DNA of 43,388 nucleotides from a virus (lineage: Duplodnaviria > Heunggongvirae > Uroviricota > Caudoviricetes). Positions 1-14,765 of the stretch are shown in pieces. The first letter of the stretch is position 1; every line of letters begins with the position of its first letter. The notes beneath the pieces are model-generated. The model did not search any database, had not been told where the DNA came from, and worked only from the letters and a program-made list of their open reading frames with translations. The stretch lies in the IMG/VR virus record IMGVR_UViG_2698536418_000010, one strand, 5' to 3'. The translations under genes and the position numbers were made by a program.

Positions 1-100
1 AGGCAACTAAGCCTGCATTAATGCCAACTTTTAGCGCACGGCTCTCTCCCAAGAGCCATTTCCCTGGACCGAATACAGGAATCGTATTCGGTCTTTTTTT
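1..100 (+). ncRNA. sdsR: sRNA SdsR/RyeB-like gene (host); antisense RyeA expected on the minus strand
   Basis: Matches my recollection of the conserved SdsR sequence (GCCUGCAUUAAUGCCAACUUUUAGCGCACGGCUCUCUCCCAAGAGCC...GGACCGAAUACAGGAAUCGUAUUCGGUC + U-run); two stem-loops (41-58, 67-93); not verified by search. Confidence 0.45.
67..100 (+). terminator. Rho-independent terminator (10-bp stem gaccgaatac/gtattcggtc, loop aggaatc, T7)
   Basis: Perfect 10-bp inverted repeat followed by ttttttt at 94-100. Confidence 0.75.
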
Positions 101-160
101 AATTGTATTTAAAATCAATTAGTTGCAAACGTCTTCCCGAAATTCCCCGAAATTTACTCG

Positions 161-186
161 AATTTCTGTATTCCGGTCTTTTTTGG
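161..186 (+). repeat. Partial direct repeat of the sdsR terminator 3' half (att core-like), next to int
   Basis: gaatttctgtattccggtctttttt vs gaatcgtattcggtcttttttt at 80-100. Confidence 0.4.
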
Positions 187-231
187 TTATATCACAACCA
201 AAATACATTTAACAATCCATTTACGTTAAAA

Positions 232-1308
232 TCAGAGTAGTAAGTACGTTTTTTCTCTCTCATCAAGATACATTTTTGTTGTCTTCTCCGATGTGTGGCC
301 AAGTAGACGCTGAGCAAATTCTTCTCCACATGTTTCTTTGTACAATCGTCCAGCCAGACTTCTGATCTCGTGAAAAGTTGGTGGGTTTTCACTGAACTGG
401 ATACCTGTTAATTTTCTGGCTGCGACAAATTTTTTTGTCAGGCCATCCGGGTGAATGCTGCCGTCAGGGCTGTTTTTTCTAATCCCGGCACTGATTAGAT
501 AATCTCCCCGGCTTACCAGGCGGCACTGTTCAACTACTGTACCAAGCCGTAGACCAGCGACAGGAAGGCTGAGTGACAGGGGGATAGCAATCATCATTCC
601 TGTCTTAATTTGCCTGATGTGGAGACGATCATCATAAATATCACTAAAGCGCATATTCGTTATGTCTTCGCGACGTTGTCCTGTTACAAGGGCTAAATCC
701 ATAGCTAATGGGAACCATGCCGGAAGTTGATCTGCTGCCTCCCTGATGCAGTTGTATGTCTTTAGTTTCAGTCGTTCTCTTGTAACTACTATTTTCGGTG
801 CTCTTGTTGGCGTTACTGGATTTTGAGATATACGTCCATCAACAATGGCCTCACGAAACATATCAGACAACACAGAACGCATTGATCCTGCCATTGTGTT
901 TTTCCCTCCTTCAATCCACAAATCAAGAAACTCGGCAATATGGCGAGTGGTTATTTCTGTCAGTAAAATTTCCCCCAATTTTTCTTTTATTGTCTCCAGT
1001 TGATTTACCCGAATTTTATAAGTATTTCTGGACACTTTTCTCCTTATAAGAATCGTTTTGTAACGTTCAATCCAGTCTGCCATAGTAAATGAGTCGAACC
1101 CTTTAAGCTTTTCAATTAAGGCAGCAGGAGAGTAGTTTTTGTATATATAATGATTTGCTTCAATTGCCTGCGCTACTGCATCTCTTCTTGAAATTTTACC
1201 TAGTGTAAATTCTTCTTTCGTCAGAGGGTTGCGCCAGTAATATGCTTTGTCCCTCCTTCGATATGTTAAGTTTTTAGGCAAATTGGGATCGTATTTTTTC
1301 CGCTGCAT
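232..1308 (-). CDS. Tyrosine integrase, lambda Int family (358 aa)
   Basis: ORF with lambda-Int-like N-terminus and C-terminal catalytic region (…[11 protein letters not shown]…LLGH…Y); adjacent to att and xis. Confidence 0.9.
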
Positions 1309-1561
1309 GTTTTAACTTCTCCAGTAACGGACTGTCTCTCCCTTGTCGCCCATTAGGCTGATGGTGTGTTATATCGGTATCAACCTTATTTGGGTTGATA
1401 TAGAAAGCCTCCGGAACCACCCTGTAACTCCTCCCGTGTAGTTCAGGTGCAGGATAAATGTTTCCATTCCTTGCCCATCGTCTCAGCGTTGATATTGATG
1501 GTGGGTTATCCGGATATCTGAGTTTTCCCCACGTTTTGAGTGTCACAAGATTCATTGCCAT
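1274..1561 (-). CDS. Excisionase (Xis-like)
   Basis: Small ORF immediately upstream of int, overlapping its start; Xis-like wHTH motif (TLRRWARNG); exact start uncertain. Confidence 0.6.
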   Translation of the reverse strand: MAMNLVTLKTWGKLRYPDNPPSISTLRRWARNGNIYPAPELHGRSYRVVPEAFYINPNKVDTDITHHQPNGRQGRDSPLLEKLKHAAEKIRSQFA

Positions 1562-1661
1562 ACCTCTTACGATATGACCGCCAGTAAATATACAGAATAC
1601 TGGCGGATGTGGTTGATTTTTAATAATCAGCTATGAAGTTCTAATTTGTATATAATGCAAC

Positions 1662-1850
1662 TCACGAGGACAGAAGTTTCTCGCAATTAAAATTTATCAG
1701 CTTTACTTTCTGCTCTCTGGAAACGCCTGCTTCTTTTTTCCCTGAGAGCATTTTTTCGCATTCTGATTTCGTTAATTTAGATTTTGAATATCTTGTCCAG
1801 TTAGTAGGAGTGCCACCTTCCTTTTCAATAGTGGCAGTAATTTTATACAT
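1662..1850 (-). CDS. YdaC-like small protein
   Basis: ORF with GGAGGTG RBS before ATG at 1850; sits between xis and ralR as in Rac. Confidence 0.45.
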   Translation of the reverse strand: MYKITATIEKEGGTPTNWTRYSKSKLTKSECEKMLSGKKEAGVSREQKVKLINFNCEKLLSS

Positions 1851-2037
1851 GAACACCTCCATTATTATTTCCAGTAGTTCGTTTATTCCATCTTTCGAGT
1901 GCTTCTTTTTCACTTCCACCATAGCCAGTTCGGGATTCGCATCCGTTGCATTTTGCCCGGTAATATCCTGAAATTGCTTTCACCGTAACAGATGGACAAC
2001 CACAAAACGGACATGGTTTAACATCGTCATATCTCAT
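1843..2037 (-). CDS. ralR: RalR/Lar restriction-alleviation protein (type I TA toxin-like), 64 aa
   Basis: Sequence MRYDDVKPCPFCGCPSVTVKAISGYYRAKCNGCESRTGYGGSEKEALERWNKRTTGNNNGGVHV matches recalled Rac RalR. Confidence 0.75.
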   Translation of the reverse strand: MRYDDVKPCPFCGCPSVTVKAISGYYRAKCNGCESRTGYGGSEKEALERWNKRTTGNNNGGVHV

Positions 2038-2093
2038 AATTTTTGTCATAAAAACTGTCTCACGTTGGCGGTGCATTACACCGCCAGGCTGAA

Positions 2094-2903
2094 TTATTCT
2101 TCTGAATTATCGATTACACTGTATTCCCCGGTTAATACAGAGGAGTCTGCCGGATCGATTGTCAGTGGTTCCTTTTCATCCATTGATACTGCACGCTGGA
2201 TTTCAATTGAGACAGGCAGGTATTTAAACAGGCGACGAATAGCCGTTTTTTTTGCCATTTCTTCCCAGTGAGTTACCCATGGCCCGTTATTACCAGCCTT
2301 ACTCTGGCTGCGCACCAGTTCAATCTGTTTGCGCGTCATAACTTCAAACTGAGTCCCTCCGTCTTTCAGTCTTGCGACAGCATAGACGTGGGTCACTGGT
2401 GCATCTTCGTTTTCTCCCGGGCGGTGTATTAACTTTTCATCAAGGCCAAATTCAAAACTAAACTCGTCACCTTCACGGACAACACGGGCTGACAGGCTGG
2501 CGATTTGACCAGAACGGCGAGCCAGATCAATCATGCCGCGATAACCAATGATTAGCTGAACGTTCTTTTTACCGCTCTTTTCGTTTTTATTACCAAAAGG
2601 CAGTAAATATGCGTGGCCGAGGGCGCTACCTGGCTCAAGGCCGAGCTGTGAACACTGAACGATCGCACTGACAAAACTCATGGTGTCACAGTTTCCTAGC
2701 GCCGGAACCTTACGAATTTCTGTGGTGGCGATACGTATCATTCGTTCAGCCGTCATATGGCGTGGGAGAGCTGCTGCCAGTTGCTCTTTCATTGATGGCT
2801 GATTAATAAAGCTGATCACGTCGTTATTTTTTACTGCTGCTGGTGCACGGTTTCCCTGGGTTTTTTGCAGATCGGCTTTTGCGATAGGTGGTTGCTTAGT
2901 CAT
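2094..2903 (-). CDS. recT: RecT single-strand annealing protein
   Basis: Near-identical to recalled Rac RecT ([24 protein letters not shown]…); AAGGAG RBS 7 nt upstream of ATG at 2903. Confidence 0.9.
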
Positions 2904-5571
2904 TTGCATACTCCTTAGCCCAGCGGGGCAGTGATAACGTTTTAATAGCTGGCCATTCATCGGTATTCAGGCAGTCAGCCAGGGTCCTCAGATTGCGGTG
3001 ATATTCCTGCTGGCCTGCCAGTTTTGCTTCTTCGCCCATCATGAAAATCTCAACCGGGTAACGTCCGCATTCAACAGTTGTGCTGGCAACCAGAAAAACG
3101 AAAGTTGGCAGCACACCAAACTGTGCTTCATAACCGTCACTGTAGAATGCATCCTGAACGTGATAGCGGTAGTCGTAATAAGCCGTTTTGAATCGTTGAA
3201 TATCCGCTGTGGTTTTCACGTCCATGATCCAGTGAAATTCAGGGATAATTTTGTCCGGACGGCACCGACACAAAATTCCTGTTTCAGGATCTTCCCAGTA
3301 AATTGATGATTCAGCGTGTCCGGCGCTTTCAACAAGCCATTGACCCAGCGGCAAAGCCATAACGCTCTGATACATGAGTTCAATTTTCCGGCCTTCTTCG
3401 GCAGTGATAACCGTTTTTCCTGTGCTTGCGCATTCCATCAGAAACGCTTTCTCCTCTTCTTTTCCGGCGGTTGTACGGCGGTTAAATTCAGGTGCCACGA
3501 TAAAGCGGTTACTGAATTCTTCCGGTTCAAGTACACGGCAGTGGAAAGCGGTTCCTAAATCGAGCGTTTTTGTCTTTGTGGTGTCCGCTGGGGCATTTTT
3601 ACGCCACAAATACAGAGCCGGAGTATCAGCAATGTCGTCGAGCTGAGACTTACTGACACCGGGACCCGCGTGGTAATTCTCATTCGAAATTCCGTAATAA
3701 ATACCAGGCTCTATGTCTCCTGCGATTACGGGATCTGCGACTTCGCCAGTTTCATCACTGCAATCGCGATGCGGATCGCTGCCAGCATTCTCATTGTGCG
3801 GATGTTCAGGGCCTTCCATTTCCTCCGGATCTTTTTCCTGAGATTCATCCAGATTTTCTTCATTAAAGGTTTCCTGATATGTGGTGTCGCCCATCACCGC
3901 GCCACAATCAGGGCAGTTGCCGCCACCGCTCTGACCGCGGGCGGCACAGACTTTTTCCGGTTCCTGTTGCGCTACTGGTTCAGATTGTTTCGTTTCTGGC
4001 TCATTTTTCTGTGCATTTTGGCTGTTTTGTTCCGCTTTCTGGTTGTTTTGTTCCGATTTGGGCTGGTTCTGGTTCACAGAATCTCGGGTTTCAATTCCCT
4101 TAACCCATTTCGGATCATTCGGGTCGCTAATCCCTTCAACAAATTCTCCGCGAGAGGCAGCCAGTAATTTGTCTGCATCGACAGGATTTTTGGGCGGAAT
4201 GTTTTTCCGGGCTTCATAGAGTTCTGCCCGCAGTTTCTGATATTTCGCATCAACAGAATTTACCTGTGACTGAGCATCCAGCGGCTGCGTGTCCTGATGA
4301 TGTTCAGTTGCATCCGGTTCCACTGTTTCAGCCGTTGCCTGTTCATCTGCCATTGCGCAAGATGGTTGCAGTTTTTCTTCATCATCCTGTTTTTCTTCTT
4401 CTGTTACACGCTGCGGCATCGGGGCAGAGGAACGACCGCAGGCAATATCCACGATTTCTGGATCAGGGTTGGCATGATCAGTTTCAGTCAGTACTTTGTT
4501 AAGATATTCAGTGACGTGTGCGGGGATAACCTCGATCCCAATTGGTGCTTCTTTTACGGACGCAACCACGATGGCGCGGGAATAATCCAGCCCGCCAGGC
4601 ATGGTGATGAATTTGTCGCGGAAAACAGAAAAGGGCGGTTTATTTTCAGCGATAATTTCCTCGACACGTTTAGCGTGTGCCGGATGAAGGTTATAAATGT
4701 CCACGTCCATTGAACGAGCCAGTACGCCAGTGGCTACGTCGCGCGCCAGTGACGTCAGATCGTGAATGAAACCTTCGCCGCGATCGGTGAGGTTCCCGCC
4801 GCCAGCATTAGCGCCGGAAGCCGTGCGCGTGATGCGTGAAACACGGTTTCCTTTCATCCACTCTTTTGTCAGCAGACCGCGATCGGTGTAGTCTGCGTCC
4901 AGGTATGCTTCGAAAAAAGCAGTCATCAGCCCCAGGCTTGAATTGCCTGGATTAGGGAAAACTCTGTCAGTATCACGCACCAGTTTGTGGAGATCGCGAA
5001 TTTCCAGCGGGTCGAGCAGGCTGGTTTTGTGGGAAACAGCCAGGGCAGTAACAGCTGGTAGTTCTTCAGCTCGTGCAATGTGTAATGCCTGTAGTTCGTT
5101 GCGTGAAACGTGCGTTACCGGTTTTTCGCTGCCGTGTTGAGCAAGCCAGCGAATGGGCAGCTCCTGACCGGAAATCGGGAGTAGCATATTCTCCTCAATC
5201 TCCGTCATGTCTTCGCCATTAACATTGGTATTGTCAGTGCTGGCTGGCTTGTCCTGCGCAGAGGATGAGGGCGCGATAAATACCATTGTGATGCCATCTT
5301 CCCCGCCTTTTTCGTAACGGTTGCAGAATTCCGTATCAAATACGCCTTCTGGTGGAAGGTCATCAACAACGGGCAAATTGACGCGAACAGGTTTTTTAAA
5401 GTCATCTTCATCGTAGCCAGCATCGTCAATCGCAACAGCACCACGGGAGATGGCAATGGATAATTTTTTCGCTTCAGCCCAGTAGAAACCGCCTTTAATA
5501 CCGAGACGTTTTCTTACTTTGTCATTTTTTGCTTCGTAATACAGTGGGTAAACTTGTTTATCGGTGCTCAT
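2896..5571 (-). CDS. recE: RecE exonuclease VIII (891 aa; N-terminus diverges from K-12 RecE)
   Basis: Long ORF; C-terminal two-thirds matches recalled RecE (…[13 protein letters not shown]). Confidence 0.9.
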
Positions 5572-5641
5572 TGCTTTTTAACCTCAACTCAGATTAAAAT
5601 TAATGCGAGTGATGAATAAATGTCCCAGGTTCTTCACTCAG

Positions 5642-5670
5642 GCCTGCACAGTGTGCAGGCTTTCTTTTTT
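5642..5670 (+). terminator. Hairpin + T-run (gcctgcaca/tgtgcaggc, tttcttttttt); intrinsic terminator on plus strand only
   Basis: Inverted repeat followed by T-rich run on plus strand; on the minus strand no U-run follows. Confidence 0.4.
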
Positions 5671-5946
5671 TCAGATTTCACCTTTTAATTTCATTGCAAT
5701 CAGAGTTGCCAGAAATTCGGCTTTTTTTTCTGCGGGCAGATTCTTTCCTATGTGCACCAGACACATTTTTTTAACACCATCGTTAAGTGTTTTAACGTTG
5801 CCTGATGGACCGTCGATATCAACCACAGTGAATGGGGTTTCTTTATTTTCTGTCTTAATCACGTAGCCAATACGCTTTCCTTCCAGGGTAACTTCGTGAA
5901 CAATGTCATCAGTAGTAACAACAGTGGCTTCATAACTGGTAATCAT
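5671..5946 (-). CDS. racC: RacC
   Basis: MITSYEATVVTTDDIVHEVTLEGKRIGYVIK… matches recalled RacC; AAGGAG RBS. Confidence 0.8.
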   Translation of the reverse strand: MITSYEATVVTTDDIVHEVTLEGKRIGYVIKTENKETPFTVVDIDGPSGNVKTLNDGVKKMCLVHIGKNLPAEKKAEFLATLIAMKLKGEI

Positions 5947-6020
5947 GTTTTTCTCCTTAATTAAGGTTGAGCGAATCCCTGCCATTGCTGGCATAAATTC
6001 AGTTTCGGATAGTCAGTTAA

Positions 6021-6191
6021 TTAAAGTTCGTGTGCCATCTGGTCTTTTTCGGCACAGATTTCACTACAATATTTTTTCATTTCCGTCGTTGGTATAACTC
6101 CACGCATGAAATGAAGTGGTCTTGTAATGATTTTGCTTTCTTCAATTTCTTTATTGCAAAGGTGATAAGCACATTTTATTTTCTTAGTCAT
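6021..6191 (-). CDS. ydaE: YdaE-like zinc-binding small protein (56 aa)
   Basis: [20 protein letters not shown]…CSEICAEKDQMAHEL; start overlaps kilR stop. Confidence 0.65.
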   Translation of the reverse strand: MTKKIKCAYHLCNKEIEESKIITRPLHFMRGVIPTTEMKKYCSEICAEKDQMAHEL

Positions 6192-6412
6192 TACCATGAC
6201 TCCGCCTTTACAGGTAAACCATCACGACCGAGGAAGACTTTAATCATGCAGTCAGAAATGCATGTTTTTGTAGTCAGGCTACGAATATAAAGTTTTCGCT
6301 TTTTAATATTGTTTGCCGAGGCGATATATGTCCGACCTTCATGAAGAACATAATCGCCAGGGGTCACACACTGACGTGGTATTTCATCAGTTCCGAAGTG
6401 ATGAGCAATCAT
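6191..6412 (-). CDS. kilR: KilR cell-division inhibitor (73 aa)
   Basis: [73 protein letters not shown]; GGAGAT RBS before ATG at 6412. Confidence 0.8.
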
Positions 6413-6820
6413 AATTATCTCCATTTTTACAAATGAATTTTGTCGATGCGGTGCCTGGTGCCTCCAGGTGACGTTAACCAGTTAACAATTAACGCCGGAT
6501 AATCCACCCATAACACTGATGCTTTTAACTGTGCCGCGTGCGCTTAGCCGCATTCACCGCATCACAAAATTCACTTTAAAAAGGGGCGGCAGGGCAGCCA
6601 CGGAGTAGAACTGATGCCGCCAAAGACTACACATAGCAATGTCGTTATTTACAACCGGAGGCGCACTCCCACCATTTAAATTTAACAGACAAGACCGACT
6701 CTTTATGGATATCGGAAATGCGCCTTCGTGTTGTGCCCGGTTTTATTTCACCACCTCCGGGCTTTGGTGGTTTCTGCTATACCCCTACAGCGAGAATATT
6801 GAATTAATCCAAATAATGGA

Positions 6821-6973
6821 TTAGCAAGTATTTCTGGCAAGCCAGCGACGTGCGCCAGCTTCGGTTTTAAACGTTTTGCTTTTGGTATACGTCATGGCGG
6901 TGAATGTGCCGTCCTGATTGGGAAACACGCCACATACCAGAGATTCGTTGTTGCCAAGATCGATAGTATCCAT
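6821..6973 (-). CDS. YdaG-like small protein (50 aa)
   Basis: MDTIDLGNNESLVCGVFPNQDGTFTAMTYTKSKTFKTEAGARRWLARNTC; GAGG RBS. Confidence 0.45.
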   Translation of the reverse strand: MDTIDLGNNESLVCGVFPNQDGTFTAMTYTKSKTFKTEAGARRWLARNTC

Positions 6974-7180
6974 GTTGACCTCATTTCCCCTTAACGCCGG
7001 GTGGCGGAACGTTTTATCTACTGCGCTTTGTATCAATCAACAACTGCCGTCATGTTCGTATGCCTCAGGCTGGCTACTTAGCCCTGTTCAGTGGCTGGAT
7101 AACTCGAGGTATTGTCCTGCCGTTCTCTGGTGGGGCGTTGTTTGGATATGCTTATTAAACACAATACGTTTTCTTGTGTC

Positions 7181-7195
7181 AACACGGAATGTGTT
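7181..7195. promoter_or_regulatory. Operator-like 15-bp palindrome AACAC-N5-GTGTT, downstream of the repressor gene
   Basis: aacacggaatgtgtt; same half-sites as operator at 7756-7770. Confidence 0.35.
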
Positions 7196-7221
7196 TTGTG
7201 GTGGGTGTCATATGATGATGG

Positions 7222-7248
7222 TACAAAAAAGCCCGCTGATAGCGGGCT
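7222..7248 (-). terminator. Rho-independent terminator of repressor gene (minus strand)
   Basis: agcccgct-gat-agcgggct hairpin with T6 on the minus strand. Confidence 0.6.
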
Positions 7249-7278
7249 GATTGGCATATTACTGTGATAGCAAGATCA

Positions 7279-7698
7279 TTACTCCGGTGGGGGATTATCT
7301 TTAAGCCTGCCTCTCAAATATTTTTCTACATACTCATCGATTTCTTTTAGCCGGACTTCAAATAGCTCAATCATTCGTTGTTGTTCTGAGCCCGGTAGCT
7401 GGTTAAACAACTCAAGAAGTTTTCGTTGGGATTCATTTAACCACAATTCAGAAGATTCCTGTTCTCCAAAGAGGAGCTCAGGAGGAGATATGCCAAGTGC
7501 CTTTCCCAATATGACAGCGTCATGCACTCCAACATTTCTGCTGCCCGCCTCATAGTTACCTATACGCGATTGCGTCCATCCGCAGATTTCAGCAAGTTTT
7601 CCTTGAGATAAACCAAGCTTCTGCCTGCGCTCTTTAAGACGCATTGCAATTTTGTCATTGAGCCTACTAGCGGCAATTTTTTCGTTTTCTTTTTCCAT
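7279..7698 (-). CDS. Prophage repressor, DicA/RacR-like HTH (XRE family, no S24 peptidase domain)
   Basis: HTH motif LSQGKLAEICGWTQSRIGNYEAG; C-terminal LLELFNQLPGSEQQ resembles DicA; divergent from cro-like gene. Confidence 0.8.
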   Translation of the reverse strand: MEKENEKIAASRLNDKIAMRLKERRQKLGLSQGKLAEICGWTQSRIGNYEAGSRNVGVHDAVILGKALGISPPELLFGEQESSELWLNESQRKLLELFNQLPGSEQQRMIELFEVRLKEIDEYVEKYLRGRLKDNPPPE

Positions 7699-7794
7699 TG
7701 CATCCTTGTATCACGAATCGTGATTTACATAAAACACAAAATAGCTTGACCATATAACACAAGGTGTGTTTAAAATTGTCATCGGAGGTTTTCA
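7699..7794. promoter_or_regulatory. Divergent promoter/operator region: palindromes atcacgaatcgtgat (7710-7724) and aacacaaggtgtgtt (7756-7770); -35 TTGACC at 7746-7751
   Basis: Two 15-bp perfect inverted repeats between divergent HTH genes; sigma70-like -35/-10 for the rightward gene. Confidence 0.6.
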
Positions 7795-8037
7795 ATGAAC
7801 AAAATTTCAACATATCGAAAACAGCTTGGGCTGTCTCAAAGACAACTTGCTGTTCAGTTAGGGTGGATACAAAGCCGACTGGCAAATTACGAAGCAAATT
7901 TTCGTACCCCTGGACTAGAGGAGTGCAGAAAAATTGTTTCTACCCTTAATCGGCTTGGCGCTCATTGTGGACTTGACGATGTATTCCCCCCAGACGGTAA
8001 GCATAGCGAAAACAGCATAGGAGCGGTTGATTCATGA
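7795..8037 (+). CDS. Cro/YdaS-like HTH regulator (80 aa)
   Basis: HTH LSQRQLAVQLGWIQSRLANYE; GGAGG RBS; divergent from repressor. Confidence 0.75.
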   Translation: MNKISTYRKQLGLSQRQLAVQLGWIQSRLANYEANFRTPGLEECRKIVSTLNRLGAHCGLDDVFPPDGKHSENSIGAVDS

Positions 8038-8459
8038 AAATCAGGCATAAGCACATCGAATCAGTGTTGTTAGCCCTGGCAGCCGAAAAAGGGCAGGCGT
8101 GGGTCGCTAACGCAATTACTGAAGAATATCTGCGCCAGGGGGGGGGCGGCGAATTGCCCCTTGTACCAGGCAAGGACTGGAACAATCAGCAGAATATCTA
8201 TCACCGTTGGTTGAAAGGTGAAACGAAAGCGCAAAGGGAAAAAATTCAGAAACTGATCCCTGCGGTTCTGGCAATTCTTCCGCGCGAGCTGCGTCACCGA
8301 CTCTGCATCTTCGATACCCTGGAACGCCGTGCATTACTGGCGGCGCAGGAAGCGTTGAGTACGGCAATTGATGCGCATGATGATGCAGTCCAGGCCGTTT
8401 ACCGGAAAGCACATTTCAGCGGTGGTGGGTCGCCCGGCGATTCTGTCGTAGTGCATTGA
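8034..8459 (+). CDS. YdaT-like protein
   Basis: Position immediately after the Cro-like gene as in Rac ydaS-ydaT; overlapping stop/start. Confidence 0.6.
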   Translation: MKIRHKHIESVLLALAAEKGQAWVANAITEEYLRQGGGGELPLVPGKDWNNQQNIYHRWLKGETKAQREKIQKLIPAVLAILPRELRHRLCIFDTLERRALLAAQEALSTAIDAHDDAVQAVYRKAHFSGGGSPGDSVVVH

Positions 8460-8536
8460 TTGAAATTAATCGTGCCGGATTGTTTTGTTCGGTATCAGTT
8501 AAATGTAACGACGCGAGCGTTACAAGGTGAAAACAA

Positions 8537-9325
8537 ATGGCTTCAAACTGGATAAAGCTCGAGGTTATTACGCCGGATAAGCCGGAAATATTCAGGCTTG
8601 CTGAGATTCTGAATATTGATCCAGATGCCGCATTAGGGAAGGTTATTCGCTTCTGGGCATGGGCGGATCAACAAATGATAGACGGTAATGCAGATTGTAA
8701 CGCTCGCGGCGTTACAAAAAGTGCAATAGATCGCATCACTTTTATGGCTGGTTTTGCTGATGCGTTAATTCAGGTTGGATGGCTGGTCGAAAATGACGTT
8801 GGGCTTTCTCTACCTAACTTTGAACGTCATAACGGAAAAAGCTCAAAAAAACGGGCGGTTACAAACGAGCGAGTTACAAAAATACGCGAACTGAAACGAA
8901 AAGGTAACGCTGCCAGCGTTACACAAACGGATCAAAAAGCGTTACCAGAGGAAGAGGAAGAGGAAGATCTAAATACTGATCTCCCCCTAAATCCCCCTCG
9001 CCAAAAACGAGCGTCTAAAAAATTCGAGCCGGAGGCTATTGAGCTGCCCGATTGGTTGCCGGAAACACTCTGGCATGAGTGGGTCCGGTTCAGACAGGCA
9101 TTGCGAAAACCGATTCGAACGGAGCAGGGCGCTAACGGGGCGATACGGGAACTGGAAAAATTCCGTCAGCAGGGTTTTACACCTGAGCAGGTGATTCGAC
9201 ACAGCATCGCCAATGAATACCAGGGCCTGTTCGCGCCGAAAGGTGTTCGGCCTGAGACGTTGCTCCGACAGGTTAACACCGTCTCGTTGCCGGACAGTGC
9301 GATCCCGCCAGGCTTCAGGGGGTAA
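8537..9325 (+). CDS. Replication initiation protein (O-like / YdaU-like, acidic linker)
   Basis: ORF with AGGTGA RBS; poly-Glu linker; immediately upstream of DnaC-like gene. Confidence 0.7.
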   Translation: MASNWIKLEVITPDKPEIFRLAEILNIDPDAALGKVIRFWAWADQQMIDGNADCNARGVTKSAIDRITFMAGFADALIQVGWLVENDVGLSLPNFERHNGKSSKKRAVTNERVTKIRELKRKGNAASVTQTDQKALPEEEEEEDLNTDLPLNPPRQKRASKKFEPEAIELPDWLPETLWHEWVRFRQALRKPIRTEQGANGAIRELEKFRQQGFTPEQVIRHSIANEYQGLFAPKGVRPETLLRQVNTVSLPDSAIPPGFRG

Positions 9326-10877: not shown

Positions 10878-11300
10878 ATGGCAAAAGTATTTACACAAGA
10901 AGAGCGGGAAAAAATTAAGGGGCAGGTTGTTGAACTCGTGCGCCAGAGCGGACGCGAGACGTTACGGCAACTGGAAGCCAAGACAGGTGCGACAAGATAT
11001 CTGATGAGTGCTCTTGCCAGAGAGCTGGTTGCCAGTGGCGATGTATACAACTCTGGTTACGGGTTATTCCCGTCTGAACAGGCGCGTAAGGACTGGCAAA
11101 ACGCCCGCAAAAAACTCTCAAGGGCAAATCTGAAGAAACCATCTGTGGTTGATCCTGACCTTATCTGGCCATTACCAGACGGAGAAATACGCCGCTACGA
11201 CAGGCGTCAAAACATAATCTGTAGCGAGTGCCGGAAGAGCGAAGCTATGCAGCGTGTACTGGCTTTCTATCAGGGTAATTTTCAGAAGGTGCTGTTGTGA
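10878..11300 (+). CDS. Hypothetical protein with C-terminal Cys pair
   Basis: ATG at 10878 with GGAGG RBS; track ORF uses an upstream TTG. Confidence 0.65.
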   Translation: MAKVFTQEEREKIKGQVVELVRQSGRETLRQLEAKTGATRYLMSALARELVASGDVYNSGYGLFPSEQARKDWQNARKKLSRANLKKPSVVDPDLIWPLPDGEIRRYDRRQNIICSECRKSEAMQRVLAFYQGNFQKVLL

Positions 11301-11347
11301 GCCAAATTAACAATCGGAACTTCGTGAAGAGAAAGCATAATCCAAAT

Positions 11348-11398
11348 CTGAATAATTAAGTTCAGCACTGTAAATAAAATTTAATCCTTAACTGGAGG
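11348..11398 (+). repeat. Module-boundary repeat copy 1 (ctgaataattaa…tttaatccttaacNggagg)
   Basis: About 50-bp near-identical direct repeat of 12615-12663. Confidence 0.6.
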
Positions 11399-11405
11399 TA
11401 TATCT

Positions 11406-11618
11406 ATGTCAAATACACAGAAAATTATTAACACTGAAAAATATAACGAGTGGGTGAAAAAATTCTCTGAGCAGATTTTTAAAATTACTGGCGACGAGAA
11501 TGTGGCAAAAAATGAATTGGAACCGTGGACACCTGAAGGAAACGCACCAAATTATTGCTGGTGGGAGGTTGATCCGGTTGATGCTGCAAATGAAGCCATG
11601 AGTTACCACAACGATTAA
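11406..11618 (+). CDS. Small hypothetical protein (70 aa)
   Basis: GGAGG RBS inside the repeat, ATG at 11406. Confidence 0.55.
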   Translation: MSNTQKIINTEKYNEWVKKFSEQIFKITGDENVAKNELEPWTPEGNAPNYCWWEVDPVDAANEAMSYHND

Positions 11619-11628
11619 TGTCGGGAGG

Positions 11629-11644
11629 CCGCCCGAAAGGGCGG
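11629..11644. repeat. GC hairpin ccgccc-gaaa-gggcgg (copy 1)
   Basis: Perfect stem-loop, repeated at 12692-12709; no U-run. Confidence 0.6.
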
Positions 11645-11650
11645 TAAGAA

Positions 11651-11869
11651 ATGACTACATTATTCAGAAAAGAATATCCGCAAAAAAGTAGGGCGACAGA
11701 ATTTTTGTTTCTCATTCTGTTTATCGTATTGATGATACCGATATCCCCTCTAATTTTTGTCTGGGCAATCGGGAAAATAATTGAGCCAGTTACTGAATTG
11801 TATAACGACGTGGTATGGGCGTCATTCAACACACTGCACAATAAAATTAATCCGTATAAGGAAAACTGA
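11651..11869 (+). CDS. Small membrane protein (72 aa)
   Basis: Hydrophobic core FLFLILFIVLMIPISPLIFVWAIG. Confidence 0.5.
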   Translation: MTTLFRKEYPQKSRATEFLFLILFIVLMIPISPLIFVWAIGKIIEPVTELYNDVVWASFNTLHNKINPYKEN

Positions 11870-11870
11870 T

Positions 11871-12134
11871 ATGGCAACTTTGACAAAAAAAGAACGGGCA
11901 TGGTTGAACGAATTACAGGAAGTTCTTGATCGCTGTCCATCACCGAAAAAAATTGGCTTTTACACCATTGGCGATAAAAGCATTTACCTGTATGACCTAC
12001 GCCGCATGGATGAAATCATGGAGGCTCTTGATAATCGTTCGTCGATGGATTGGTGTGTTGCTGTTCATGATATGAATGCAGGGTTTGATGAAAAGATTTT
12101 GTTCCCCTCATCAGTTGAAAGCACTGCGGGTTAA
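11871..12134 (+). CDS. Hypothetical protein (87 aa)
   Basis: AAGGA RBS, ATG at 11871 right after previous stop. Confidence 0.6.
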   Translation: MATLTKKERAWLNELQEVLDRCPSPKKIGFYTIGDKSIYLYDLRRMDEIMEALDNRSSMDWCVAVHDMNAGFDEKILFPSSVESTAG

Positions 12135-12144
12135 GGAGTAACAC

Positions 12145-12288
12145 ATGACCACTATTACCAAAGAACGTATTGAATTGTTCATTAAATTTTCAGGAGGCGG
12201 TACTGTGAGTGAAATTAGCTATCAGGCTTCAATTACCGCTGGCATTCGCATCAAAGGAGAGGAGCATGGAAATAAAACCAGAGGATGA
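12145..12288 (+). CDS. Possible small protein (47 aa)
   Basis: Strong AAGGAG RBS 7 nt upstream of ATG 12145; overlaps next gene; hand-translated. Confidence 0.35.
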   Translation: MTTITKERIELFIKFSGGGTVSEISYQASITAGIRIKGEEHGNKTRG

Positions 12289-12622
12289 GTTAAGCAATAT
12301 CGTTTTATTTCCGGTAAAAGAGGATGACCCTCGTAATCAGGTTAATTTTCTTTATGAGCCATCGGAAAGACCATATTGTCATCACGCCTCTGTCCGGGTT
12401 GACGAAAAAGAGCGTCAGGTCCGCTGTAAAATCTGCGGTGCAGTTGTGGAACCATTTGACTGGATGCTCTCTGTGGCGAAAAGAGAAACCAGACTGGCAG
12501 ATGATGTAAGGCTCTTGCGTCAGGAGGAGCGGGAAAGGCGAAAAAATATAGAAAAGCTAATTCAGATTGAGCGTAACGCGAAAGCGCGGATACGCAGGGC
12601 GACAAAATCCAGAACTGAATAA
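12266..12622 (+). CDS. Hypothetical zinc-ribbon-like protein (118 aa)
   Basis: AAGGAGAG RBS; CHH…CKIC motif. Confidence 0.6.
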   Translation: MEIKPEDELSNIVLFPVKEDDPRNQVNFLYEPSERPYCHHASVRVDEKERQVRCKICGAVVEPFDWMLSVAKRETRLADDVRLLRQEERERRKNIEKLIQIERNAKARIRRATKSRTE

Positions 12623-12663
12623 TTAAATTTAGCTCTGTTAAAAATTTAATCCTTAACCGGAGG
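12615..12663 (+). repeat. Module-boundary repeat copy 2
   Basis: Near-identical to 11348-11398; here followed by no ORF. Confidence 0.6.
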
Positions 12664-12691
12664 GATTTCTGCACCCTTAGAACATCAGGAA

Positions 12692-12709
12692 GCCGCCCGA
12701 AAGGGCGGC
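12692..12709. repeat. GC hairpin gccgccc-gaaa-gggcggc (copy 2)
   Basis: Identical core to 11629-11644. Confidence 0.6.
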
Positions 12710-12720
12710 GGTTCCATTGT

Positions 12721-13018
12721 TTAACTATCTAATATTGTGCTAAATCTTTTTATAACCATCAAGAATGTTACTACGGTAAAAAAGAAGGATGAGTATGCTA
12801 AATAACTGATTATGTAAGCAGGGGTTGCGAAATACCATTTTTTTAATTCACTTGGGGGTTCTGGGAGAAAATATATTGCAACCGAAAAAATAACTAACGC
12901 TACAGATGTTAATATGGCATAAGAAACATTGTGACATAATTGCTCATATACGGTTTTATTATTATTTAAAATTATTAGATTTGAACGTGGTTTGTTGTTT
13001 TCCTCAATGTCTGAAATT
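12721..13018 (-). CDS. Open +1-frame continuation of the membrane protein gene (adds 2 predicted TM helices); reachable by a 1-nt change in the A7 tract
   Basis: No stop in the +1 frame from 13017 to 12724; encodes …YAILTSVALVIFSVAIYFL… and …YIISYLAYSSFFFTVVTFLMVI…; no in-frame ATG/GTG/TTG start. Confidence 0.4.
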
Positions 13019-13276
13019 TTAAATACAGTTTTTTTGTTTTTGATCGTAGATCATAATAACCGCGCTCATTAATAGTGCGGTAGTAATTGCTCCAAAGTTA
13101 ACAAAAACAGATGCGATAGAGGTTTTCATTATCCCATAGGTAAAACATATGATTAATGATAATGTAAGAGGAATGATGAAGTGTATTGCGATGTCTTCGA
13201 GTAAAATATTTCCGCGTTGATCCGACATTGTTGTGTAATGTTTTTTTATTACACTCATTACGTTAATCTTGTTCAT
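13019..13276 (-). CDS. Small 2-TM membrane protein (85 aa), translationally coupled to upstream gene; candidate effector
   Basis: ATGA overlap with 310-aa ORF; two hydrophobic helices; AT-rich. Confidence 0.7.
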   Translation of the reverse strand: MNKINVMSVIKKHYTTMSDQRGNILLEDIAIHFIIPLTLSLIICFTYGIMKTSIASVFVNFGAITTALLMSAVIMIYDQKQKNCI

Positions 13277-14205
13277 ATTTTTACTCCCCCATTACCACTA
13301 TGTAACTCACTTAGTATATCATTCGCAATGATTTTAACAGTGTCATGAAGTGCTTTAAGATCGGGGATTCCTGTAGATGCGTTTATGTTTAAGTCGTTAT
13401 CATCTAATTCGGCAGAAATTCCTTTTCTTAAGATGGTGTCGTAATTAAAAATGACTGTTCTATTGCCTAATTGTAAACTAACTTTTATTGCGTCACACTT
13501 ATCTTCAATTATTTCTATTATATTTCCTAGTTTTTTGTCTTTTAAGTCTTTAAAACTACCAAATACGCCTTGATTTGCTTTTATTACCAAATCAGTTTTG
13601 ATGTTTGTTTTGTTATTTCCGAATGAATCCGTGATGTCCTTTGGTGCTTTGTAACCTTGGGCTTTTATTTGTTTTAATTCTGAATCAAGGATGTGTTGGG
13701 GAATTTTTTTGTGGCAAAGGGGATTGATTCTCGCTTCAAGTTTATATTTTGTTTTCAAGTGGTCTAGTAATGCATCAGAGAGTGTGCTGCGAGCAGAAAT
13801 ATTGTCATTAGCGTGAAATGCTATAATCCCTTCTTCTAAATTGTCTGGCAAAAATATTAAAATGTAACGCTGTTTGAGAGTTACATCGTTGATAGTTGTT
13901 GTATAACGTATTTTAGTAAGTTTATCGTCTTTTATTTCACTGCTCTCACCATATTTCCCAACCTTTACATATCCATATATTACTTGGTTTTGAGCATCAA
14001 AGGTGAGTGATGTGTGTTGTTCAAGAGAAACCTTTGTTTTCGAGAGACCAAATTCAATAGGTGTGTTTTTATAGCTATTAAAATACTCAACAAATAATTC
14101 ATATGCTGTTTTTTTATCGCTTAAACCTAGGTTGTTTAGTCTTTTGCTGGTTCGGCTGCCCTTGTGGGTTAACACACGGAATGAATAGAAGTTAACGCTG
14201 TGCAT
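13273..14205 (-). CDS. Hypothetical 310-aa soluble protein, first gene of AT-rich accessory cassette (candidate Abi/exclusion sensor)
   Basis: AAAGGA RBS before ATG at 14205; low GC relative to flanks; no nucleotide-binding motif seen. Confidence 0.8.
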   Translation of the reverse strand: MHSVNFYSFRVLTHKGSRTSKRLNNLGLSDKKTAYELFVEYFNSYKNTPIEFGLSKTKVSLEQHTSLTFDAQNQVIYGYVKVGKYGESSEIKDDKLTKIRYTTTINDVTLKQRYILIFLPDNLEEGIIAFHANDNISARSTLSDALLDHLKTKYKLEARINPLCHKKIPQHILDSELKQIKAQGYKAPKDITDSFGNNKTNIKTDLVIKANQGVFGSFKDLKDKKLGNIIEIIEDKCDAIKVSLQLGNRTVIFNYDTILRKGISAELDDNDLNINASTGIPDLKALHDTVKIIANDILSELHSGNGGVKI

Positions 14206-14529
14206 GAAAAGTCCTTTTGAACATATAGGAATATATTAGAGCATGTATGTGTGCAATGCATAAAAGGAAAAGCTACCGCAAGGCGACTCCACCCACAGAT
14301 AGCTCTTAACTGATTGTTTGTAAAAAATAATACATTAATTATCTTCTGTGTAAAGAGGGAAACAGCCTTAGGGTAAGGGACACGAGTTGGAGGAGGATTG
14401 GTGAAATTTGCGTTGAGGATAAAACGATTTGCGGGAAAAGGATAGTTAAGTAGAATAGCTGCGGGTGCTTGAGGCTGTCTGCCTCGGGCATGAACACCAA
14501 CGGCAGATAGATAAAAGCCCCACCCGACT

Positions 14530-14600
14530 ATAAATCGAAGTGAGGCCCCTATATGCTCGTCACATATAGATTGCCTCTTACGGACCGAAAGGTCAAGGAG
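14530..14600 (-). ncRNA. Expected position of Sok-like antisense RNA (approximate)
   Basis: By analogy with hok/sok loci where antisense RNA overlaps the mok/hok leader; boundaries not defined. Confidence 0.25.
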
Positions 14601-14609
14601 AAGCAGGCT

Positions 14610-14765
14610 ATGAAGCAGCAAAAGGCGATGTTAGTCGCCCTGATCGTCATCTGTTTAACCGTCATAGTGACGGCACTGGTAACGAGGAAAGACCTCTGCG
14701 AGGTACGAATCCGAACCGGCCAGACGGAGGTCGCTGTCTTCACAGCTTACGAACCTGAGGAGTAA
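14610..14765 (+). CDS. hok: Hok/Gef-family type I toxin (51 aa)
   Basis: MKQQKAMLVALIVICLTVIVTALVTRKDLCEVRIRTGQTEVAVFTAYEPEE; in-frame upstream extension from 14553 (mok-like). Confidence 0.9.
   Translation: MKQQKAMLVALIVICLTVIVTALVTRKDLCEVRIRTGQTEVAVFTAYEPEE

Follow-up and report, generated by a model that had tools for sequence, protein, structure and literature searches.

The window analysed in this study is a stretch of 43,388 nucleotides, the virus record IMGVR_UViG_2698536418_000010 (Caudoviricetes), and it carries on its minus strand a 1.7-kb AT-rich cassette of two overlapping genes, designated here gene A and gene B. The cassette is likely to be a RexAB-type two-gene abortive-infection (Abi) or exclusion system and part of the exchangeable cargo of a Rac-like prophage, and it probably belongs to the Sucellos family. 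A RexA/RexB-like two-gene system of this kind had been proposed in an initial annotation, which was made from the sequence alone. That proposal is supported by the domain plan of A, a profile signal linking A to RexA, the presence of a four-transmembrane (4-TM) partner, the variable slot in which the cassette is situated and two validated analogues.

To our knowledge, studies of Rex-like systems have covered no more than a handful of cases, and the questions of how RexA senses infection and how RexB opens are unsolved 70 years after Benzer. The results presented below describe a single pair, combining a predicted RexA-fold protein with a 4-TM protein, that constitutes a large, strictly co-evolving superfamily distributed across prophages, plasmids, conjugative elements and integron-type cassettes. 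This superfamily is invisible to the copies of Pfam, NCBIfam and PADLOC (2023) that were searched.

Gene A and gene B form an obligate pair

The 310-aa open reading frame (ORF) of gene A and its ATGA overlap with the following ORF were both found at the positions given in the initial annotation. Each gene has a full-length match in PHROGs (phrog_15676 for A and phrog_15250 for intact B), in both cases to a family of unknown function. Gene A matched nothing in Pfam, NCBIfam, PADLOC (2023 copy) or the PDB sequence set, and searches of Pfam, NCBIfam, PADLOC and PDB sequences returned nothing meaningful for either the 85-aa ORF that follows A in the window or the intact form of B. The earlier remark that A fits no family thus stands with regard to Pfam, NCBIfam and PADLOC models, but the accompanying suggestion that it is uncharacterised is probably overstated, since the family is likely to be the one described as Sucellos in 2024.

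Word-seeded searches recovered 37 clusters of A and 44 of B, all of them enterobacterial, annotated as 'hypothetical' and situated on the same contigs; the largest A and B clusters, with 361 and 398 member sequences, are from Salmonella. An exhaustive profile search begun with 32 A sequences extended the family to 591 representatives at E <= 1e-3 (134 at E <= 1e-10). Nearly all of these are 300-320 aa in length and align end to end; among the organisms from which they derive are Halomonas, a cyanobacterium (Snowella) and, through a metagenome-assembled genome (MAG), an archaeon. None of 131 superfamily members matched any Pfam family, and no match to a RexA or RdgC model was obtained. One member, encoded on a metagenome contig (4001-5254), has 417 aa, with an N-terminal extension of approximately 110 residues.

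A homologue of B follows A, overlapping or abutting it, in 39 of 39 loci examined, over a range of 100% to ~20% identity. These loci comprise nine that span the superfamily and 30 species-representative genomes obtained from a genome scan for the B motifs. In the nine loci, A is followed by a gene of 168-184 aa, with an overlap or a gap of no more than 80 bp, and all nine partners are B homologues (E values of 1e-16 to 1e-78) that possess four hydrophobic segments and the motifs VNFGAIxTALL...YDQ and M..KR. The genomes from the motif scan represent Pseudomonas, Vibrio, Alteromonas, Halomonas, Aeromonas, Yersinia and an Alcaligenaceae MAG; an A homologue was situated immediately upstream of B in 30/30, at -17 to +12 bp for called starts. 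A and B are an obligate, co-evolving pair, not a chance juxtaposition.

The genomic settings of the pair are varied. It was found in lambdoid prophages, including the same slot beside hokD in different Rac-like prophages, on a Yersinia plasmid adjoining ParA/ParG, on a Proteus conjugative element, and on a 2.4-kb contig of Vibrio sp. WZ-1, where attC-like palindromes border it at either end. Short contigs on which it is situated are common from V. parahaemolyticus, V. vulnificus and V. metoecus. On the metagenome contig that encodes the 417-aa form of A, the pair is followed by two genes with GmrSD_N domains (6566-9254), which is a defence-island context. Two further loci may be mentioned. The Vibrio sp. 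WZ-1 contig contains a type II hammerhead ribozyme at 189-249 (Rfam RF02276, 44 bits against a gathering score of 37), approximately 270 nt ahead of the attC-like palindrome on the upstream side of the pair. In a Candidatus Methanofastidiosa MAG (3813-5355), a pair of 318 + 168 aa adjoins a 707-aa protein that weakly matches an N6/N4 methyltransferase; either the family reaches the archaea or this contig was mis-binned.

The base composition of the window agrees with the earlier description of a sharply AT-rich island on the minus strand. The G+C content is 0.30-0.34 across approximately 12750-14250 and 0.332 for 12721-14400, compared with approximately 0.46-0.50 to either side and with 0.46 and 0.48 in the 3-kb flanks, and in 18/18 hosts compared the cassette was AT-richer than its own flanks. 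Full-length copies are present in 36 of 5,426 complete E. coli genomes (0.7%). A 76%-identical variant occurs in other E. coli prophages, and its homology to the window extends from ~14380 to 12650/12685.

The placement of the cassette in a prophage moron slot was likewise borne out, in that the space holds variable cargo. The same prophage backbone in E. coli P4 (NZ_CP072688.1, 11324-13292; window equivalent ~11300-14450) carries other genes at this position, namely three hypothetical genes and one with a dATP/dGTP pyrophosphohydrolase domain; the last may be a further gene for defence or nucleotide depletion. The A/B cassette adjoined hokD in 3/3 E. coli prophage contexts examined, and this junction therefore looks like a preferred insertion point for cargo. 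Accessory genes are exchanged in the slot upstream of hokD, which behaves as a hotspot for them.

Substitutions between the two E. coli variants (dN/dS, the ratio of non-synonymous to synonymous change, of 0.044 for A; dN of 0.17 with saturated synonymous sites for B) point to strong purifying selection on both genes. Taken together, the constant pairing, the variable slot, the AT-richness and the selection argue that the cassette is mobile, selected cargo.

Relationship to RexA, RexB and validated Rex-like systems

The Rex-like architecture class considered here consists of the systems of lambda, Sbash, CarolAnn and Butters, together with RexABpp. The class was delimited by a RexA fold, in which a dimerisation domain is inserted into a split globular domain, by an adjacent, obligate 4-TM partner, by carriage on temperate phages or mobile elements with expression in the lysogen, and by a dimeric soluble protein with non-specific DNA binding and a need for both genes in phage exclusion. 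The domain plan of A is of the first type, a 4-strand/4-helix insertion splitting its globular domain as the 4-strand/4-helix dimerisation domain does in RexA; B provides the adjacent 4-TM obligate partner, and the pI of A (9.0) would suit DNA binding. Topology prediction, which had been suggested in the initial annotation, revealed four hydrophobic segments in intact B (residues 29-47, 58-76, 119-137 and 155-182). The N-terminus, loop 2 and C-terminus contain 12 lysine and arginine residues and the other side only 3, a distribution favouring an N-in/C-in orientation with the 36-residue TM2-TM3 loop in the cytoplasm.

Profile-profile comparisons provide additional data on the relationship of A to RexA. 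No signal was obtained in hhalign with a narrow A profile. When the 131-sequence A profile was compared with 30 RexA sequences, the score was 32.3 (P 8.8e-4, 151 co-linear columns), against 18.6 +/- 4.1 (maximum 30.2) for block-shuffled and 15.7 for reversed profiles. With four divergent RexA homologues from viral contigs added, it was 38.9 (P 1.1e-4, 146 co-linear columns), a value reached by 0/60 block shuffles (17.3 +/- 4.4, maximum 32). The alignment places the INPL motif of A on the IEPL(M) hinge of RexA and runs on through the dimerisation domain. The signal is weak but above the null, and it required both the superfamily profile of 131 sequences and a RexA profile that had been diversified. 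On this basis, A is a probable remote homologue of RexA.

There are points of likeness to lambda RexA/RexB (PDB 8TWQ; PF15969 for RexA). In both systems a basic, soluble protein (pI of 9.0 for A, 8.6 for RexA and, in addition, 9.2 for RexApp) is followed by a tightly linked 4-TM protein, and the genes are cargo of a temperate lambdoid phage, in an orientation that would allow expression in the lysogen. There are also differences. RexA has 279 aa and RexB 144 aa, whereas A is 31 residues longer and B is 40 residues longer, with its 36-residue cytoplasmic loop; the A/B genes are not located in the immunity region and are not co-transcribed with cI; and their hosts are far wider in range, encompassing Gammaproteobacteria, a betaproteobacterium, a cyanobacterium and an archaeal MAG.

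Two further systems, both experimentally validated, resemble the cassette. RexABpp (PP_5643/PP_5644), from P. putida prophage P1, is anti-phage and needs both genes (Rosendahl et al., Sci Rep 2026, PMC12894663). Like the A/B cassette it is prophage-borne, its 4-TM partner of ~188 aa has no detectable homologue, and its protein sizes fit those of A and B (310 + 184 aa) and not those of lambda (279 + 144 aa). RexApp and A both begin with M-H, the native start codon of PP_5643 being GTG. RexABpp differs in that RexBpp does not contain the VNFGAI..YDQ motifs of B, and in that the genes are near a CI-like repressor, which the window cassette is not. Comparisons of A with RexApp and of B with RexBpp, made with single sequences or a 2-sequence profile, gave no signal; this test was powerless, as RexApp versus RexA failed too.

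The second system is Sucellos (sclA/sclB), which corresponds to cassette 68 of the V. cholerae superintegron (Darracq et al., bioRxiv 2024, doi 10.1101/2024.07.02.601686). It was described in that report as RexAB-like by structure without a Pfam match, as requiring both genes and as having its own promoter; SclB is predicted to be pore-forming, and a phage pentapeptide-repeat protein acts as an anti-defence. Infected cells undergo early lysis or death, with no phage amplification at high multiplicity of infection (MOI), and outside integrons the system is found mainly in prophages, 'often in Salmonella' (doi 10.1101/2024.07.02.601686). The A/B pair resembles it as a small two-gene cassette of compatible size that is RexAB-like by structure without a Pfam match, in its Salmonella-rich clusters and many Vibrio members, and in the attC-like flanks of the pair on the Vibrio contig. 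Compared by description, A/B and Sucellos are likely to be one family. If that is so, the cassette of the window is a copy from an E. coli prophage in which sclB is disrupted. No V. cholerae member of A/B was found in the genome and cluster scans made here, and no mention of the RefSeq accessions of the cassette was found in the literature or in the DefensePredictor supplements. RexABpp and Sucellos share their evidence profile with A/B and are anti-phage, and they therefore support a Rex-like reading of the cassette.

Several results weigh against that reading and must be set beside those above. The hhalign probability of the A-RexA alignment is just 56%. The canonical models fail, in that neither A and B nor their distant relatives match the RexA/RexB models of Pfam or PADLOC, while lambda RexA and RexB, as positive controls, match the PADLOC models at 9e-110 and 8.6e-61, respectively; of the test against RexA/RexB suggested in the initial annotation, it is the profile-profile signal for A that came out above its null. 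Comparison of the B family with a RexB family of 17 sequences (all 138-155 aa, with 4 TM) gave an hhalign score of 17.3, where the null is 15.3 +/- 2.0 and 10/60 shuffles reach the observed value, so that B resembles RexB in topology only; nor is B detectably homologous to RexBpp. Foldseek, also suggested at the outset, retrieved from the viral models of BFVD uncharacterised proteins of phages, with E values as low as 3e-13, together with an RdgC-like protein (prob 0.94), and RexA is not listed there. The cassette is situated outside the immunity region, ~5 kb from the repressor, unlike the rex genes of lambda. Promoter-like sites in the region do not exceed shuffled expectation, which makes the promoter call a weak one, at chance level. 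Gene B is broken in the window, and the function of this copy is consequently doubtful. Finally, experimental support for the A/B family exists only if the family is Sucellos. What remains of the RexA/RexB layout recognised in the initial annotation is thus a Rex-like architecture; judged by the sequence comparisons, the pair is not a canonical RexAB, and B is not detectably related to RexB.

The frameshift in gene B, the proposed mode of action and alternative explanations

Copies in other E. coli genomes that are 98.7% identical to the cassette are annotated with two intact genes of 310 + 184 aa, joined by the same 4-bp overlap, intact B being a 555-bp coding sequence. Alignment with these copies revealed one extra A in the window. 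The 85-aa membrane protein and the open +1 frame to 12721 noted in the initial annotation are therefore both real, but they are the two parts of one broken 184-aa, 4-TM gene. Database entries from three further E. coli assemblies contain exactly this 85-aa product, in every case alongside an A allele identical to that of the window. The frameshift is therefore inherited, and an isolated sequencing error does not account for it. Apart from the extra A, the window differs from the intact copies by 4 substitutions in B and 4 in A (dN/dS of 0.086 for A), so that the inactivation would be very recent and reversible by one-base slippage.

The product lacks the loop, TM3 and TM4, and both genes are required in the analogues; the copy is on these grounds predicted to be inactive. 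It is probably non-functional for defence, although A may still be made. Phase variation, with the A-run serving as a designed (contingency) switch, was considered and rejected: run length varies from 3 to 8 across the family, and the cassette contains several other in-frame A7 runs. The run appears to be an incidental slippage site. Disrupted alleles were also observed elsewhere. Truncated A alleles of 131 aa, unmarked as partial, are present in 31 E. coli contigs; in one further locus A is split, and in another B could not be called. Such recurrent inactivation suggests that the system is costly.

The evidence leans towards regarding the window cassette as a decaying remnant without current function, a view that concerns the state of this copy and not the kind of system to which it belongs. 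The inheritance of the +1 frameshift in at least 3-4 assemblies is consistent with it, as is the need for both genes in the validated analogues. The small number of substitutions, 4 in each gene besides the extra A, speaks for a very recent event that slippage could reverse, and lambda RexA has RexB-independent activity, so that A alone could still matter.

For intact members of the family, a mode of action may be proposed by analogy with the systems described above. A would be a cytoplasmic dimer with a RexA/RdgC fold that binds DNA non-specifically and senses an infection cue, which might be a phage protein or intermediates of phage replication or recombination. Activated A would then trigger B, a 4-TM inner-membrane protein with cytoplasmic termini and TM2-TM3 loop, which may oligomerise into a pore. 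The resulting loss of membrane potential or integrity would lead to growth stop or cell death before the phage cycle is completed. As to expression, the cassette lies on the same strand as a repressor-like gene (7279-7698, minus strand) and antisense to the lytic operon, at ~5 kb from that gene and beyond the replication genes. The candidate promoter falls within the stretch conserved with the 76% variant. This orientation and the promoter-like site at 14354-14327 make it plausible that the pair has its own promoter and would be expressed in the lysogen. In the window, the +1 frameshift after TM2 would truncate the effector and leave the copy defence-dead.

It is unlikely that the cassette is instead a toxin-antitoxin (TA)-like addiction or stabilisation module, or one of the Butters type with reversed roles, in which B is a toxin checked by A or A an effector sequestered by B. 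Role reversal in Rex-like pairs does have a precedent in Butters gp30/gp31 (PMC12894663), the cassette adjoins hok/sok, other copies are found beside ParA/ParG on a plasmid and on a conjugative element, and the recurrent inactive alleles of A (131 aa) and of B (in the window) suggest a fitness cost. Set against these observations, alleles with truncated A and with truncated B persist in several assemblies (the state of the partner in A-truncated strains being unchecked), the validated relatives need both genes for anti-phage activity, and no TA family model was matched.

The structural resemblance of A to RdgC raises a further possibility. RdgC inhibits RecA functions, and A might be an RdgC-like modulator of recombination or replication, tethered or regulated by a membrane partner, that acts on the DNA of the mobile element itself and has no role in defence. 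This is very improbable. E. coli RdgC (recombination-associated protein, PDB 2OWL) is a stand-alone housekeeping protein with no membrane partner, whereas A is paired with a 4-TM protein in 39/39 loci; A has no match to the RdgC Pfam model, and RexA scores above RdgC. The location of the cassette is also difficult to reconcile with such a role, as it occupies a slot of variable cargo, antisense to the lytic/replication operon, and is present in 0.7% of complete E. coli genomes, and the pair is found in addition on plasmids, in integron-like cassettes and beside GmrSD-like genes.

Superinfection exclusion (Sie) without suicide, with B blocking DNA entry at the inner membrane in a Sie/Imm-like manner and A as its regulator, has the least to recommend it: a membrane protein is likely made in the lysogen, the related KV7 prophage also has sieB, and most cells survive RexBpp activation (PMC12894663), but no Sie system is known to involve a DNA-binding partner of RexA fold, cells infected in the presence of Sucellos lyse or die early with no amplification of phage at high MOI, and neither SieB nor Imm models show similarity.

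The RexAB-type reading has practical consequences. Paired 'hypothetical protein' genes in E. coli and Salmonella prophages can be annotated as candidates for RexAB-type, probably Sucellos, defence, and the window copy, being frameshifted, is not to be counted as an active one. The deep alignments yield conserved motifs suitable for mutation (GxYG and INPL in A; VNFGAI..YDQ and M..KR in B), and a high-confidence structural model is also available for A. The finding will not surprise a specialist in phage defence; its use is in annotation and as an entry point to a Rex-like superfamily.

Feature coordinates and neighbouring genes

Table 1. Features of the cassette and its borders (positions in the window)
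Feature	Position	Strand	Description and basis
Mobile two-gene cassette (promoter region, gene A, gene B)	12721..14400	-	AT-rich cargo in a variable prophage slot
Candidate own promoter	14327..14354	-	TTTACA-16 nt-TATTAT, ~120 nt upstream of the A ATG; consensus scan, 10/12 matches
Gene A	13273..14205	-	Soluble protein of 310 aa with a mildly basic pI (9.0) and a RexA/RdgC-like fold; would act as a DNA-binding sensor/activator
Gene B (frameshifted)	12721..13276	-	Intact form 184 aa, 4-TM inner-membrane protein, proposed effector; three-frame translation and alignment to intact copies
Gene B, 85-aa ORF	13019-13276	-	TM1-TM2
Gene B, +1-frame remainder	12721-13028	-	Cytoplasmic loop, TM3-TM4
Frameshift site	13029-13035	-	A7 run in place of the A6 of intact alleles; within the Lys-rich motif YDQKQK, right after TM2
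GC-rich hairpin	12688..12715	unassigned	Cassette/backbone boundary, between convergent gene B and the upstream + strand operon; seen in the sequence
hok/sok type I toxin-antitoxin (complete, adjoins cassette)	sok 14463-14612; hok-family ORF 14553-14765		sok by Rfam, 102.9 bits; hok-family ORF MKQQKAMLVALIVICLTVIVTALVTRKDLCEVRIRTGQTEVAVFTAYEPEE

The coordinates of the cassette and of the features at its borders are shown in Table 1. The type I toxin that had been noted next to the cassette was verified as hok/sok, by the Rfam match for sok and by the hok ORF. At the opposite end, a scan for intrinsic terminators did not score the hairpin after B for the minus strand, because the T-run is missing. 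The 59 bp at 12650-12708 are common to many lambdoid phages that have no cassette, with 93-97% identity. Beyond them, an ORF at 12209-12622 on the plus strand (137 aa) converges on gene B. Its product contains the CxxC-containing motif RCKICGAVVEP and a basic, coiled C-terminus, and it is the positional counterpart of the DUF977-type genes of related prophages.

Comparison of window positions 1-8500 with strain P4 identified an integrase, an excisionase, the RalR type I toxin, RecT/RecE, Kil, a repressor/Cro-like pair and YdaT. By gene content this has the appearance of a typical Rac-like early region, and the window would thus represent an essentially complete Rac-family prophage, with several toxin-type genes in addition to the cassette.

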